A DNA stretch of 32,000 nt from Candidatus Harpocratesius repetitus (GCA_021498095.1 JAIZWK010000001.1:2550001-2582000), one strand, 5' to 3'; numbered from the stretch's first letter, positions 2,504 through 12,951 are shown. Translations and numbers: made by a program. The notes: generated by a model not told the origin, from the letters alone.

Positions 2504-4090
2504 TCAAGGAGAAAAATTATCTAATTCTTTTTCTAAATTTGGTGTAATCCCCCCATGCTTGGATAGTCGATCACTTCTAATTTTTGTTGGTAAACTTAGT
2601 AATACTGAAGGTCCAAAAATGAAAGCTTCACCAGGAGATAATGATCTTATTTGAATTAAATCTGAATCACTGATATATTCAGATATACCCTTTACATACC
2701 TTTGATCATCAGGGTTAGTCAATCTCATTACAATTTGAGTATTGCATTGTGAAAGGACGTCAGAGTCTAATCTACTAGGTCGTTGACTTACTACACCCAT
2801 GCCCATAAGAAATTTTCTACCTTCTTGAGCTAATCTTTTAAGTGCAGGTTTGCTAGCGGAACTTTCAGCACTTCCTGGAATAAATCTATGAGCTTCTTCA
2901 AAAATACATAAAGCGGGAGGTAATTTTCTAAAAATTCGCTCATTTAAGATTTTTTCAGTGATCATTGCTACAAAAGCTTGCTGATATACATTAGATAAAT
3001 TACTTAAATCCATAATAGAAATTTGACCTTTTTTCACAATTTCTTTATAATCTAAAACTTTATCATTTACTTCTTTCTGTAAGAATGGGGTATGAGTAAT
3101 TAATAATTTGAATTTCTGTATCAAAGTTTTTTTTGCTGTTTTTGTCGAAACATCACTATTATTACATACTTTTGTGAAGTCCTCTAAAACTTGAAAATCT
3201 CTACCTTTGTTTTCAATTTTAAAATCACCCCAAACATCTTGTAATATTCGAGTTTGTGCTTCACTTAATCCATACAATGTGTTTAACAAATAAGAAATTT
3301 GATAATATTCCATTTCTCTAACTCTTGTGGCAATTCTAACAGAATTTCTATCGAAATCATACTTTTTTTTAAAATTTTCATCAATTATATTAATAACTTG
3401 AGAATTGCCTGTTGTAAATATTTTTACACTTGAAGAAAAATAACTATCTTTTGGATTTTCAGGTATTTTCAATGTAGAATACTCACTATGTGGATCAAAT
3501 ATAATAATCGGAAAATCAGGTATTGCTTCTTTTAATCTTTCAATTATTGTTGCAACTGTCCATGACTTTCCTGCCCCAGTCATTGCTAATATAGCAAAAT
3601 GCATTGATATTATTTTTTCAACATTAACAAAAATTGAAATTTCTTCATTTTGGATAAAATTTCCAATTTTAATGCAAGTTTCATCATTGAATGATAATTG
3701 CTCTTCTAAGAAAGATGGAGCAACTAGAAATACTTTACTACCTAATTTTGGAGGAACTTTCTTTCTAACAAAGATAGAGTTTTTGAGATTTGGATTTCTT
3801 CTTCCAATGACTTCTACTTTGCATACTAAGTAATCTTCAAAATCGCCAATAATTGCTTCGCGTTCTATATCATCATTTTCAAAAATCGTTGTTAAATTTA
3901 CCGCACCATTTTCATTTATTAATGGATTTGAACTTTCTATTGAGGAGATACGACCTAATTGCCGAAAATTATCTGAATAAAATTCAACTATATCCCCTAA
4001 TGATAACCTTAATCCAGGTTTTGATACGAAATTAAATTGTGAAAATCCTTCTGTTTTGAATATTACACCAATCATCTTTTTTGATTTCAT
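2504..4090 (-). CDS. herA: HerA-family ATPase/helicase with N-terminal HAS barrel
   Basis: HFAILAMTGAGKS (Walker A), IFDPHSEY, IFEEAHRF (Walker B), EGRKF...VSQRPS.LD..VLSQCNTQI.MRL.NP.D. ATGA overlap with nurA at 4087-4090. Confidence 0.93.
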   Translation of the reverse strand: MKSKKMIGVIFKTEGFSQFNFVSKPGLRLSLGDIVEFYSDNFRQLGRISSIESSNPLINENGAVNLTTIFENDDIEREAIIGDFEDYLVCKVEVIGRRNPNLKNSIFVRKKVPPKLGSKVFLVAPSFLEEQLSFNDETCIKIGNFIQNEEISIFVNVEKIISMHFAILAMTGAGKSWTVATIIERLKEAIPDFPIIIFDPHSEYSTLKIPENPKDSYFSSSVKIFTTGNSQVINIIDENFKKKYDFDRNSVRIATRVREMEYYQISYLLNTLYGLSEAQTRILQDVWGDFKIENKGRDFQVLEDFTKVCNNSDVSTKTAKKTLIQKFKLLITHTPFLQKEVNDKVLDYKEIVKKGQISIMDLSNLSNVYQQAFVAMITEKILNERIFRKLPPALCIFEEAHRFIPGSAESSASKPALKRLAQEGRKFLMGMGVVSQRPSRLDSDVLSQCNTQIVMRLTNPDDQRYVKGISEYISDSDLIQIRSLSPGEAFIFGPSVLLSLPTKIRSDRLSKHGGITPNLEKELDNFSP

Positions 4091-5253
4091 AAATATTCCC
4101 TTATTTTATTTTGTTCAAAAATTTGTAAAACATCAAAAATTTCATTTTTTTTACAGTTATTAATAAAGAAGTATTCTAACAAAGAAATTAATTTCCTACC
4201 TTGAATTTTTGTCATTGTTATTTTCTTGTGAGCATAAATTAAAGGCAAAGGATAACCCAATATTGTTGAATTTCTTGAAAAATAATAAAGTGAATCTAGA
4301 ACCTTTTTTTTTCTAGAATCCTCGGAAATTGCCCATTTAGGTATTTCTACAAAATAAAAATTGTTTGATTTATCAATTTTATAATACATTGCAAGAATAT
4401 TCTCATTGTCTAAATCTTTAATTTCAGTTTTACCTCTTAATCCATATTTTTCTGATAATACAACAAAGGGTGTTCGATATGAGCCTTTCTTATTTTTAAA
4501 TATATAATTGATAATACTTTGTTCATTCATTTTTATAGGATCTATTTTATTTATCAATTGTTTGATTGTCTCATTATATTCATTTTTTTGCATTAGAAAT
4601 TTATCTATTTCTGATATGGTCATTTGATTCAATATTTTTTTTTGTGCTAATAGATATTTATTAGAAGTAGGTTGTTTTATCACAGCAATTAACCCAATTT
4701 TCAATCTTCTAATCATTGAAAACAATTCATTTGCAATTTTCTTATATTCATCAATTGCTAATTTTAGCTCGTTATCGAATTTTGTTTCGTTAAAATTAAA
4801 ATTCATTTTGTTCGGATATGATATTGATCCGTCGATAAAAATAATATCAATATTAATCCCGTTTTCTAATGATTGATTCAATGCAGCCAAAATTGATTTA
4901 TATTCAATTACTTTTTGGTAAATCGAATGAATGAAGTCAGAATTATAATTGTTAGTAATTGTATATTTAGATAGAAATTTGATTCTTTTTTTTTTGCTTT
5001 CATATACTCCTGCAGCAGCAAAACTAATAGCAAAACTTCTAAAATTTTGTTTAATCACTGTTCCATCCGTAACTAAATAATTAATTTCTGGAACGTTTGA
5101 ACTAGGTTTAAACGGAATAAGATAATTATCAGAATATTCATTTGATAATTTATGATATTTTTTTATGTCTTTAATAAGAGACTTACCTTGGTTTAAAAAG
5201 AAATTGAAAAGTTCTAACCTAAAACTTCTTATATCGTTATCATAAATATACAT
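4087..5253 (-). CDS. nurA: NurA-family 5'-3' nuclease
   Basis: LVTDGT, IFIDGSI, IAVIK and GYPLPLIYAH motifs; coupled to herA; GGAG upstream. Confidence 0.85.
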   Translation of the reverse strand: MYIYDNDIRSFRLELFNFFLNQGKSLIKDIKKYHKLSNEYSDNYLIPFKPSSNVPEINYLVTDGTVIKQNFRSFAISFAAAGVYESKKKRIKFLSKYTITNNYNSDFIHSIYQKVIEYKSILAALNQSLENGINIDIIFIDGSISYPNKMNFNFNETKFDNELKLAIDEYKKIANELFSMIRRLKIGLIAVIKQPTSNKYLLAQKKILNQMTISEIDKFLMQKNEYNETIKQLINKIDPIKMNEQSIINYIFKNKKGSYRTPFVVLSEKYGLRGKTEIKDLDNENILAMYYKIDKSNNFYFVEIPKWAISEDSRKKKVLDSLYYFSRNSTILGYPLPLIYAHKKITMTKIQGRKLISLLEYFFINNCKKNEIFDVLQIFEQNKIREYL

Positions 5254-5272
5254 ATCAATTCTCCAAATTATT

Positions 5273-12207: not shown

Positions 12208-12213
12208 TACTTT

Positions 12214-12951
12214 TCATTCTCCTGGAGCAATTATTTCGTGAATTTTTTTTTCAGGTCCTGAAAAATGATACAGCACTTCCAAGCTGCCATCTAAAAGTTT
12301 TATAATGTTCTTTTTATAGTCAAAAATACCGTTCTTTGAAGCCATTCGATAAACCGGCACCATCTTTAAGTCTTCCAGCGCAGGCTTCAAGGCTTCCACA
12401 TAAATATTTCCCATTATCATGATGATGGCCTTTTTATTTTTAAGATATTGCTCCAATTTGGGTAAAATCTTTTTTTGGATGGCGCGAGCATCCGCTTTAG
12501 TCTTCAGTTGTTTATCGTAAGGCTCCAAAATCTCGTCCGGCTCCACTAATCCGTATTTGGCACTTACGATGAGTTCATTAAATTTATGTTGGGTTACCCA
12601 AATATGTGCTTTTTTAAAGACATCTCCCTGATAAAGTTCGGAAGCTGGGGCGGGATGGTTGAGTTTCTTTTTAGTGCAAGAGAGGATAACGAGTATTTCA
12701 TCATTTTTTATGGGTGTTTCAATCCCAAGATATTTATCTAAAGGTGCAAACCGTTTTATCTTAGATTTGGATTTTATTAAAAAGGAATCTAACCGAAGGT
12801 AGGATGATTCGGTACGTTTACGTCTGGGTCTGGGTCTAGGTCTGGATTTGGATTTGTTTTTGTGATTTAATTTGTGATACTGCCCATTATTTCTAACCAA
12901 ATTTGGAACGAACCGGCAGAGACCCATTTGAGCATTTATTGATAAATTCAT
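12214..12951 (-). CDS. DUF6884/YaaA-like Rossmannoid protein with basic low-complexity N-terminal extension
   Basis: ILSCTKKK...PASELYQG..FKKA...IVSAKYGLV.PD..LEPYD..L...MG..Y; 6 nt from the TGT start codon. Confidence 0.75.
   Translation of the reverse strand: MNLSINAQMGLCRFVPNLVRNNGQYHKLNHKNKSKSRPRPRPRRKRTESSYLRLDSFLIKSKSKIKRFAPLDKYLGIETPIKNDEILVILSCTKKKLNHPAPASELYQGDVFKKAHIWVTQHKFNELIVSAKYGLVEPDEILEPYDKQLKTKADARAIQKKILPKLEQYLKNKKAIIMIMGNIYVEALKPALEDLKMVPVYRMASKNGIFDYKKNIIKLLDGSLEVLYHFSGPEKKIHEIIAPGE

Follow-up and report, generated by a model that had tools for sequence, protein, structure and literature searches.

A Recurrent Cluster of a PUA-less TGT-Family Transglycosylase with NurA, HerA and a Giant ATPase: Predicted Deazaguanine-Based Defence and a Chimeric Locus in Candidatus Harpocratesius repetitus

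Introduction

In the Dpd system of bacteria, the TGT-family enzyme DpdA puts 7-cyano-7-deazaguanine (preQ0) into DNA, and DpdC yields dADG (2'-deoxy-7-amido-7-deazaguanosine) (PMC10164549). A stand-alone DUF5591 protein (ArcS2) co-expressed with a DpdA gives 2'-deoxyarchaeosine (dG+) in plasmid DNA; co-expression of the pair from phage nt-1 puts dG+ into DNA (PMC10516641). Combinations of HerA, ORC/Cdc6-like ATPases and nucleases recur as devices against invaders (PMC10853773, PMC12839542), a theme noted for capture systems (PMC10853773). The BREX-related capture system (BRC) joins PglZ, DUF6079/BrxC, a STAND NTPase, DUF4007, HerA, a GNAT protein and a TGT (PMC12839542, NAR 2026), and is described by its authors as having no DpdC homologue (PMC12839542). 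Here we describe a stretch of 32,000 nucleotides (the window) from the closed 4.36 Mb genome of the Asgard archaeon Candidatus Harpocratesius repetitus (GCA_021498095.1 JAIZWK010000001.1:2550001-2582000), in which six minus-strand genes encode a TGT-family transglycosylase, a DUF6884 protein, a small protein, a giant ATPase, NurA and HerA. These families recur together in archaea and bacteria, and we propose that the cluster they form probably acts as a restriction-modification-like defence system.

The Gene Block and Its Recurrence

The six open reading frames (ORFs), all uninterrupted in the ORF calling of the window, are the following; type C denotes the HerA clade to which the window belongs (see below).

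2504-4090, minus strand: HerA-family hexameric translocase ATPase, 528 aa, type C clade (DUF87 and PADLOC HerA matches)
4087-5253, minus strand: NurA-family nuclease, 388 aa (Pfam NurA match, motifs)
5273-9439, minus strand: giant ATPase, 1388 aa, predicted sensor/loader (Walker motifs, ORC/Cdc6-like model)
9442-10461, minus strand: small giant-partner protein, 339 aa as called (homologues directly upstream of giants)
10882-12207, minus strand: PUA-less TGT-family transglycosylase, 441 aa, ArcTGT-derived, predicted DNA guanine/preQ0 exchange (Pfam TGT match)
12214-12951, minus strand: DUF6884 protein, 245 aa, DpdC-like, predicted second-step enzyme on preQ0 in DNA (Pfam DUF6884 match)

The genes are separated by 6 nt (DUF6884/TGT), 2 nt (339-aa gene/giant) and 19 nt (giant/NurA), and NurA and HerA overlap by 4 nt (ATGA). 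This arrangement had been given in a preliminary description made from the sequence alone; its coordinates and junctions match exactly, and its family calls (HerA, NurA, TGT, DUF6884, an AAA+ ATPase and an unknown protein) are confirmed by Pfam, PADLOC and NCBIfam scans, in which the giant shows a P-loop at its N-terminus. A gap of 420 nt (10462-10881) parts the TGT and DUF6884 genes from the four effector genes. The GC content is 22-26% over 4-11 kb and 33-35% over the TGT and DUF6884 genes, the genome mean being 31.0%.

The same description had made its proposal depend on the two blocks also meeting in other genomes, and this is strongly borne out from three independent anchors, namely the TGT, the giant and the HerA clade. 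About 80 TGT homologues were collected, mostly from metagenome-assembled genomes of Promethearchaeota, Lokiarchaeota and Helarchaeota, and a scan with one genome per GTDB species gave 55 loci. Neighbours were counted in 59 non-redundant TGT loci, the window being excluded, by clustering the proteins encoded within 10 kb and annotating the clusters with Pfam. HerA lies within this distance in 29/59 loci, NurA in 24/59 and a giant of ~1400 aa in 17/59; on the side of marking, DUF6884 is found in 23/59, DUF5591 in 16/59 and QueC in 6/59. Among the loci with at least 8 kb on both flanks, the share rises to 18 of 28 for HerA, and 24 of 28 carry DUF6884 or DUF5591.

The TGT loci are spread patchily across many archaeal and bacterial phyla, and the earlier designation of the cluster as an Asgard system is therefore not retained. 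Three architectures can be distinguished. The first, NurA-HerA-giant-(DUF5591 or DUF6884)-TGT, occurs in Bathyarchaeia, Archaeoglobales, Korarchaeia-like genomes, Hydrothermarchaeota, Nitrosopumilus, Thermoplasmata, Methanobacteriaceae and a few bacteria; the second, with two giants, in Promethearchaeota (L018, L019, L024, L026); and the third is a bacterial four-gene form, DUF6884-NurA-HerA-TGT. As the cluster is defined here, its giant is a protein of ~1100-1470 aa.

From the giant, its relative P0094 leads to a tight operon encoding a 258-aa protein, DUF5591, TGT, a 260-aa protein, the giant, a 180-aa protein, NurA and HerA (L080, L081). HerA and NurA of L080 are 44% and 26% (9e-27) identical to those of the window, and the 260-aa protein is homologous to the 339-aa protein. 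On the HerA phylogeny, window and L080 group together (96% support) as a third clade linked to TGT (type C), distinct from the one linked to giants and from that of the bacterial four-gene form.

From HerA, metagenome contigs were scanned with the pair of window and L080 sequences. All four close relatives (35-63% identity) with enough upstream sequence carry a TGT (L093, L095, L099, L104), and the contig of a further one, L094, ends just before the expected TGT position. Distant HerA-NurA loci (<33% identity) have no TGT, with the exception of the very distant L141 (21% identity). A TGT-less layout, NurA (350 aa), a protein of ~270-275 aa, HerA (~500 aa) and a protein of ~309 aa, recurs in metagenome contigs (L111, L115, L122, L138 and others); it presumably represents an ordinary HerA-NurA module and serves as an internal negative control. 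The linkage seen from all three anchors places both blocks in one recurrent cluster, which at the family level is very probably a real functional unit.

One type C locus holds a further gene between the TGT and the small partner (L104:2960-4273, plus strand). Its 437-aa product matches PCNA_N at 6.4e-6, above the cut-off, and PCNA_C weakly. A sliding-clamp-like protein inside the cluster fits a DNA substrate. Comparison by hhalign of the type C 258-aa family with this PCNA-like protein showed no relation.

The Marking Enzymes

The window TGT matches Pfam TGT at 2.5e-16, has archaeosine TgtA as its nearest NCBIfam model, and is without the C2 and PUA domains. In an alignment of 34 family members, the catalytic D103, D144 and D274, which correspond to D95, D130 and D249 of ArcTGT, are invariant, as are the ligands C331, C333, C336 and H370 of a Cys3-His zinc site. 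Relative to ArcTGT, the family has a conserved basic insert before the zinc site, for which a DNA-binding role may be supposed. Searched against the PDB, the family profile finds ArcTGT (1iq8) at 1.4e-31, bacterial TGT at ~4e-9 and DpdA (7ui4) at 2.4e-3. The PADLOC DpdA model matches neither the window TGT nor that of L080, and the TGTs of sister loci at most weakly (9e-10 in L031, 3.6e-6 in L050). Judged by sequence, the window TGT is a member of an ArcTGT-derived lineage and not a DpdA in the strict sense, with the same fold and catalytic residues as DpdA. Its earlier assignment as a DpdA-type paralogue is abandoned in view of these scores (1.4e-31 for ArcTGT vs 2.4e-3 for DpdA) and of the missing DpdB.

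The DUF6884 protein, the only one encoded in this genome, matches its Pfam family at 2.6e-25 and, in PADLOC, PDC-M57A at 7e-22 and DpdC at 2.4e-5; a match to H2O2_YaaD (1.3e-6) falls under that model's cut-off. The protein, which has a basic N-terminal extension of ~85 aa, appears to be related to DpdC, and its second-step activity is a prediction. Its closest homologue (phmmer, 1.3e-76) is encoded in L018, directly upstream of a TGT that is 61% identical to the window TGT. DUF5591, the ArcS C1 core (ArcS2), replaces it in sister loci, and all of these partners (18/18) keep the motif C-x3-KP-x3-S. As for the supply of preQ0, QueC adjoins the TGT in 6 loci, together with QueD and QueE in L023; in the present genome QueC is encoded elsewhere.

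A subgroup of DUF5591 proteins of ~250 aa (L030, L032, L036, L042, L043, L044) has the last His of the ArcS C1 motif changed to Tyr, with Cys, Lys-Pro and Ser kept. This change may reflect a different chemistry at the nitrile.

The Effector Proteins

HerA matches Pfam DUF87 at 7e-36 and PADLOC HerA at 3.5e-57, in the latter case generic HerA models only. NurA matches its Pfam family at 1.9e-12 and displays the motifs LVTDGT, IFIDGS and GYPLPLIYAH; the motifs of both proteins are intact. By analogy with the archaeal resection pair, they would probably assemble as a HerA hexamer with a NurA dimer.

The giant carries a Walker A motif (GEYGTGKT) at residue 50 and a Walker B motif (IILIDE) at residue 103, and its N-terminus gives weak Pfam matches to nSTAND_NTPase5 and AAA, below or near the cut-offs. 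A predicted structure of residues 1-420 is confident over residues 20-265 and has Cdc6/Orc1 entries as its top Foldseek matches (2qby_A at 8e-8, 1fnn, 2v1u); the N-terminus models as an ORC/Cdc6-like AAA+ domain. An alignment of 22 giants shows full conservation of G53, K56 and E108 and near-complete conservation of D107, R172 and N237. Between the window giant and those of the TGT loci, homology was detected in the ATPase domain only: a profile of 17 of the latter aligns with the window giant over 59 columns in hhalign (65% probability), in the Walker A stretch only, and BLASTP of the giant and the 339-aa protein against the L018 and L019 giants returns only the Walker A match. Sister giants show scattered weak winged-helix matches in Pfam. 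Neither the window giant nor 17 sister giants match DUF6079, DUF499 or BrxC in Pfam; in the Atlas, BrxC_BrxD clusters appear as weak leads only.

The ~1100 aa that follow the AAA+ domain are helical and fast-evolving, and relatives of this part were detectable neither by exhaustive phmmer nor by an Atlas search of residues 430-1388. A k-mer homology search with the giant gave no match. Exhaustive phmmer against 1.8 billion representatives gave 11 matches, 6 of which are fragments of the window giant itself; the only full-length relative is P0094, with 31% identity over the first ~540 residues.

The 339-aa protein probably starts at an ATG 13 codons downstream of the called start, near 10422, to judge from the alignment of its homologues, which are encoded directly upstream of the giant in L080, L082, L093, L094, L095 and L104. 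It has no Pfam match, and its AlphaFold model, built on an alignment of 3 sequences, is too poor to use (predicted local distance difference test score of 38). Its Atlas leads (FokI-recognition, AlwI and DpdG-like, 0.83-0.89) are weak and not confirmed, and a role in DNA recognition is a lead only.

The effector and marking genes are accessory in this lineage. Among 30 relatives of the same order, including two congeners, the TGT paralogue is present in one (44% identity) and in neither congener, and the window HerA has no orthologue, the best match being 37% identical; the relatives share instead the HerA copy that lies at 3.938 Mb of this genome. At the DNA level, a congener shares with the window only the repeats described below. 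Other copies of these families lie elsewhere in the genome: a canonical ArcTGT (0.634 Mb, 1.6e-73), an 803-aa ORF at 2.09 Mb that is the third with a TGT domain, another NurA-like gene and five more genes with DUF87.

Proposed Mechanism

We suggest, with a probability of roughly 60%, that the recurrent cluster is a restriction-modification-like defence system which couples deazaguanine self-marking to a HerA-NurA effector. In this mechanism, the TGT would exchange guanines of the cell's own DNA for preQ0 supplied by the archaeosine pathway of the host. The DUF6884 protein would then turn the nitrile into an amide and so form dADG; where DUF5591 stands in for it, as in sister loci, the product would be dG+. 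The small protein would bind DNA together with the giant ATPase, and both would check it for the mark. Where the mark is missing, they would load the HerA hexamer and the NurA dimer, or activate them, and these would translocate along the unmarked DNA and degrade it.

A Chimeric Locus

A number of observations weigh against this proposal, most of them as it applies to the window. The TGT tree places the window as sister of L018 (100%) within a Promethearchaeota clade (98%), and the TGT of L080, only 25% identical to that of the window, falls near the bacterial clade. TGT and HerA phylogenies are thus incongruent, which implies that the local pairing was not co-inherited. Moreover, the partners of the Promethearchaeota TGT clade vary: some members have HerA and two giants, others DEAD-helicase clusters, methyltransferases along with BREX and QueC/D/E, or a Hef-like enzyme. 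The GC step between the blocks, an insertion sequence (IS) remnant in the gap and a truncated McrC gene are signs of rearrangement or decay, and tblastn of the window revealed no trace of three type C genes that are missing from it (258-aa protein, DUF5591, 180-aa protein). Under strict restriction-modification logic, a mismatched marking module should be lethal; the mismatch leaves three options, namely that the effector tolerates this mark, that the effector is inactive, or that another logic applies. Finally, DNA rather than RNA is taken as the substrate of this TGT lineage from its context.

In two loci of the Promethearchaeota clade, L023 (on the same contig as L025) and L027, TGT and DUF6884 lie between DNA methyltransferase genes and a BREX-like set (BrxL, PglZ-like, BrxC-like), and the partner of the marking cassette there is thus another defence module.

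The signs of rearrangement are the following features.

10475-10708, no strand: IS110-family internal-deletion derivative (remnant resembling a miniature inverted-repeat transposable element) between the TGT and the effector block (ends match the element)
14252-14428, no strand: second IS110-family deletion derivative, in inverted orientation (matches the same element)
13304-13789, plus strand: truncated McrC gene, C-terminal ~160 aa only (Pfam McrBC and tblastn matches)

The IS scars noticed earlier around the genes are real. Their arms, 10586-10708 and 14252-14374, show 94% complementarity and go back to an IS110-family element; shorter arms of 28 nt (10475-10502 and 14401-14428) pair at 86%. 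The source, of ~2.25 kb, is located at 3.43 Mb of the same genome (G000:C1:3430067-3432319; loci L015, L016), with its transposase split into two ORFs (DEDD_Tnp_IS110 1.1e-18, Transposase_20 7.3e-18). Its two ends are matched by 10484-10587 and 10586-10689 at 98-99% identity; the internal 2045 bp are gone and both ends are joined, the two matches overlapping by 2 nt. The second derivative matches at 97% over 14271-14404 (G000 3430067-3430200). The two end segments of the element occur many times in the congener G002, often at contig ends.

The alternative in which the repeat was a target element hit by an IS110 insertion was rejected in favour of a deletion derivative, because one of the halves overlaps the 3' end of the transposase ORF and because the halves occur at separate places and at contig ends in the congener.

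The two derivatives bracket a segment with TGT, DUF6884 and the McrC fragment. The latter matches Pfam McrBC at 2.7e-6 over profile positions 232-318 only and, by tblastn, is 46% identical to residues 284-442 of the McrC that adjoins the TGT in L019.

In the window, the parts do not form one tight, co-inherited operon: the gap holds IS sequence, the trees disagree and the GC content shifts. By the sequence evidence available, the locus is a chimera of a type C effector block and a TGT-DUF6884 cassette of the Promethearchaeota type. The simplest history has a type C system arriving by horizontal transfer, after which the Promethearchaeota-type cassette either took the place of its marking module or came to lie beside it. 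The order and orientation of the window genes match those of type C operons (marking genes, small protein, giant, NurA, HerA). With blocks of different subtypes and GC content and with an IS110 remnant between them, local co-function is plausible but not assured, and we consider the chances that the two blocks cooperate in this genome to be evenly balanced.

Alternative Explanations

The most serious rival holds that the adjacency is accidental, the blocks being relics of two systems joined by rearrangement in a defence island. TGT and DUF6884 would then be an orphan marker or serve another restriction system, and the effector would be independent or inert. The preliminary description had raised this caveat because of the repeat-containing gap, and it stands in part: the blocks come from different subtypes, differ in GC content and are separated by an IS remnant. 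Incongruent trees, the inverted IS110 remnants that bracket the cassette, the truncated McrC and the varying partners of the clade point in the same direction. Against it, the order and orientation are exactly those of type C, and since the families of the two blocks are linked to each other elsewhere, a chance meeting in the canonical arrangement is unlikely. Furthermore, all six ORFs are intact with their catalytic motifs, and an effector without a cognate mark should be counter-selected. We regard accidental adjacency as unlikely.

The cluster could also be cargo of a mobile element, with TGT and DUF6884 hypermodifying the element's DNA to evade host restriction, as phage DpdA does, and with the giant and HerA-NurA serving its replication, partition or packaging instead of defence. 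ORC/Cdc6 and HerA/FtsK ATPases do occur on archaeal plasmids and viruses, and the low GC content of the effector block and the IS remnants would fit. L022, from the Promethearchaeota TGT clade, is located on a contig listed as viral in IMG/VR, and viral DpdA and ArcS2 pairs are known (PMC10516641). However, only 1 strong match was found among 2.9 million viral contigs, and integrase, capsid or conjugation genes were not seen beside the cluster in the window or the inspected loci. The giant evolves extremely fast over its C-terminal ~1100 aa, as sensors of conflict systems typically do, and NurA is a nuclease that is not known to act in packaging. On balance, mobile-element cargo is improbable.

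On the 76-kb contig of L022 (identical to L089), the neighbours of TGT and DUF5591 are genes for an ERCC4 nuclease, a Hef-like helicase and a histone-fold protein, and no HerA was found within the 10 kb flanking the TGT on either side. L022 could stem from a virus or element of Asgard archaea in which the marking cassette is used by itself.

Yet more improbable is a type IV-like or base-excision trigger without self-marking, in which the TGT would act on invader DNA, attacking its guanines or 7-deazaguanines, and HerA-NurA would enter at the covalent or abasic intermediates of this reaction. TGT enzymes form a covalent intermediate with nucleic acid (PMC10164549), NurA-HerA acts at DNA ends or nicks (PMC3326311), and such a trigger would explain why a swapped TGT cassette is tolerated. 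Nevertheless, QueC (6 loci, with QueD/QueE in L023) and DUF6884 or DUF5591 travel with the TGT, and genes for the precursor and for second-step enzymes indicate synthesis and maturation of a mark, not mere excision.

Strongly disfavoured, and the weakest of all, is a housekeeping role with HerA-NurA as a double-strand-break resection machine and the TGT paralogue as a tRNA-modifying enzyme: in archaea the canonical pair for resection is HerA-NurA, NurA genes of Asgard archaea are seen in this light in a 2026 review (PMC13748450), and a repair helicase model tops the NCBIfam matches of HerA, though far under its cut-off (208 vs 970 bits), but the lack of conservation of TGT and window HerA in the 30 relatives argues against housekeeping repair, as do the canonical ArcTGT elsewhere in the genome, the position of the effector block, with its GC content of 22-26%, away from Mre11-Rad50, and a TGT without tRNA-binding domains. 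No Mre11 or Rad50 genes were found in the window; a Rad50 zinc-hook search of the genome gave no match, with a weak control that was positive in only 3/14 genomes.

Neighbouring Features

Nuclease genes had also been reported next to the block, and these are the McrC fragment and two genes at the other side.

3-659, minus strand: RNase III-domain protein that runs off the window edge (Pfam Ribonuclease_3, 1.3e-14)
899-2152, plus strand: DUF2400/TIGR02757 protein, 417 aa (match at 7.7e-30)

The DUF2400 gene is convergent with HerA, and its match covers the first ~275 residues, followed by a C-terminal extension of ~140 aa. Since it does not recur beside TGT in other loci, it is probably outside the cluster. 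A search of the window for Rfam RNA families found none.

Further into the window, a direct duplicate of 245 nt (15756-16000 and 22392-22636, 93% identity) is present. A 120-aa ORF at 15759-16121 clusters with an 858-aa AAA_16/KAP-like NTPase (22395-24971) and looks like a partial copy of the NTPase gene. Two paralogous right-handed beta-helix/NosD-like proteins of 420 and 916 aa are encoded at 17468-18730 and 19036-21786 on the plus strand (Beta_helix matches up to 1.5e-133), in a stretch with a GC content of 33-40%.

Implications

The type C subtype with its small partner, the Asgard instance of the cluster and the chimera flanked by IS110 remnants are new here. If the proposed mechanism is true, a 7-deazaguanine mark in DNA would tell self from non-self in a dozen bacterial phyla and in archaea, the Asgard group among them. 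The mark would be set by a transglycosylase lineage separate from DpdA, and the effector would be a new one, NurA-HerA steered by a giant ORC/Cdc6-like ATPase. Caution would then be needed in reading every Asgard or archaeal NurA and HerA as recombination repair, as in PMC13748450.

More tentatively, and at rather long odds, the ArcTGT-derived TGT with DUF6884 or DUF5591 could be a portable marking cassette that is exchanged freely between unrelated modules of restriction (NurA-HerA-giant, DEAD-helicase, BREX and Hef-like), with a heterologous cassette serving a foreign NurA-HerA in the window. If so, the sensor formed by the giant and the small protein would read a generic 7-deazaguanine mark and not a cognate sequence motif, the cluster would represent a new class of archaeal restriction-modification immunity, and some Asgard NurA and HerA genes annotated as DNA repair would be immune genes. 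The chimeric locus is a natural experiment on the interchangeability of marking cassettes between effectors. The bacterial four-gene form (DUF6884-NurA-HerA-TGT) is small enough for a direct test in a model host.

Comparison with Known Systems

PADLOC 2.0 has no model of the cluster, and the NurA, giant and DUF5591 proteins of these loci are all unmodelled in it; a description of the combination was not found in the literature searched either, with BRC as the closest. The first impression that it is not a named system was correct in this respect.

The archaeal HerA-NurA-Mre11-Rad50 resection machinery shares the same two families with intact ATPase and nuclease motifs. Unlike it, the present genes show no linkage to Mre11-Rad50, are not conserved in relatives and are linked to a TGT.

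The viral pairs of DpdA and ArcS2 (Vibrio phage nt-1, Sulfolobus virus STSV2; PMC10516641) resemble the marking block in combining a PUA-less transglycosylase with a stand-alone second-step enzyme. They are anti-restriction devices without a nuclease partner, whereas the TGT here is tied to NurA-HerA, and the window has DUF6884 instead of DUF5591.

The Dpd system (dpdA-K; Salmonella Montevideo and other bacteria; PMC10164549) is alike in that a TGT-family enzyme adjoins a DpdC-related protein and ATPase and nuclease genes, and in that a 7-deazaguanine self-mark, predicted in the present case, is combined with restriction of unmarked DNA. The transglycosylase differs, being a TgtA5-type DpdA there and of ArcTGT-derived lineage here, and sister loci of the cluster use DUF5591 (ArcS2) instead of DpdC. 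Insertion in Dpd needs DpdB, a ParB-like ATPase. The present cluster has no DpdB: Pfam, PADLOC and NCBIfam scans of the six proteins and of their neighbours gave no ParB-like domain. Likewise, the PADLOC scan gave no matches to DpdD-K, in whose place stand the small protein, the giant, NurA and HerA.

BRC is the sole system found in the literature searched whose predicted defence locus combines HerA with a TGT, and its prediction is also purely computational. It too possesses a large protein that joins an AAA+ domain of ORC/Cdc6 type to DNA-binding parts of fast evolution, as well as a HerA/FtsK translocase, represented here by the DUF87 match. PglZ was absent from the scanned window ORFs, and GNAT, STAND BrxB-like and DUF4007 components were not detected in the cluster. 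Conversely, NurA, DUF6884 and DUF5591 are absent from PMC12839542 and its text supplements.

Finally, the HerA/FtsK capture systems (DndFGH; PMC10853773), SIR2-HerA and DUF4297-HerA have in common with the cluster that a HerA-family translocase has been drawn into a conflict system, alongside an effector, be it a nuclease or another, and DNA-binding partners that evolve fast. In the present cluster this effector is NurA, the classical repair partner of HerA, the HerA clades differ, and the predicted self-mark is a deazaguanine and not a phosphorothioate. The cluster can best be classed as a deazaguanine restriction-modification system crossed with a HerA capture system.

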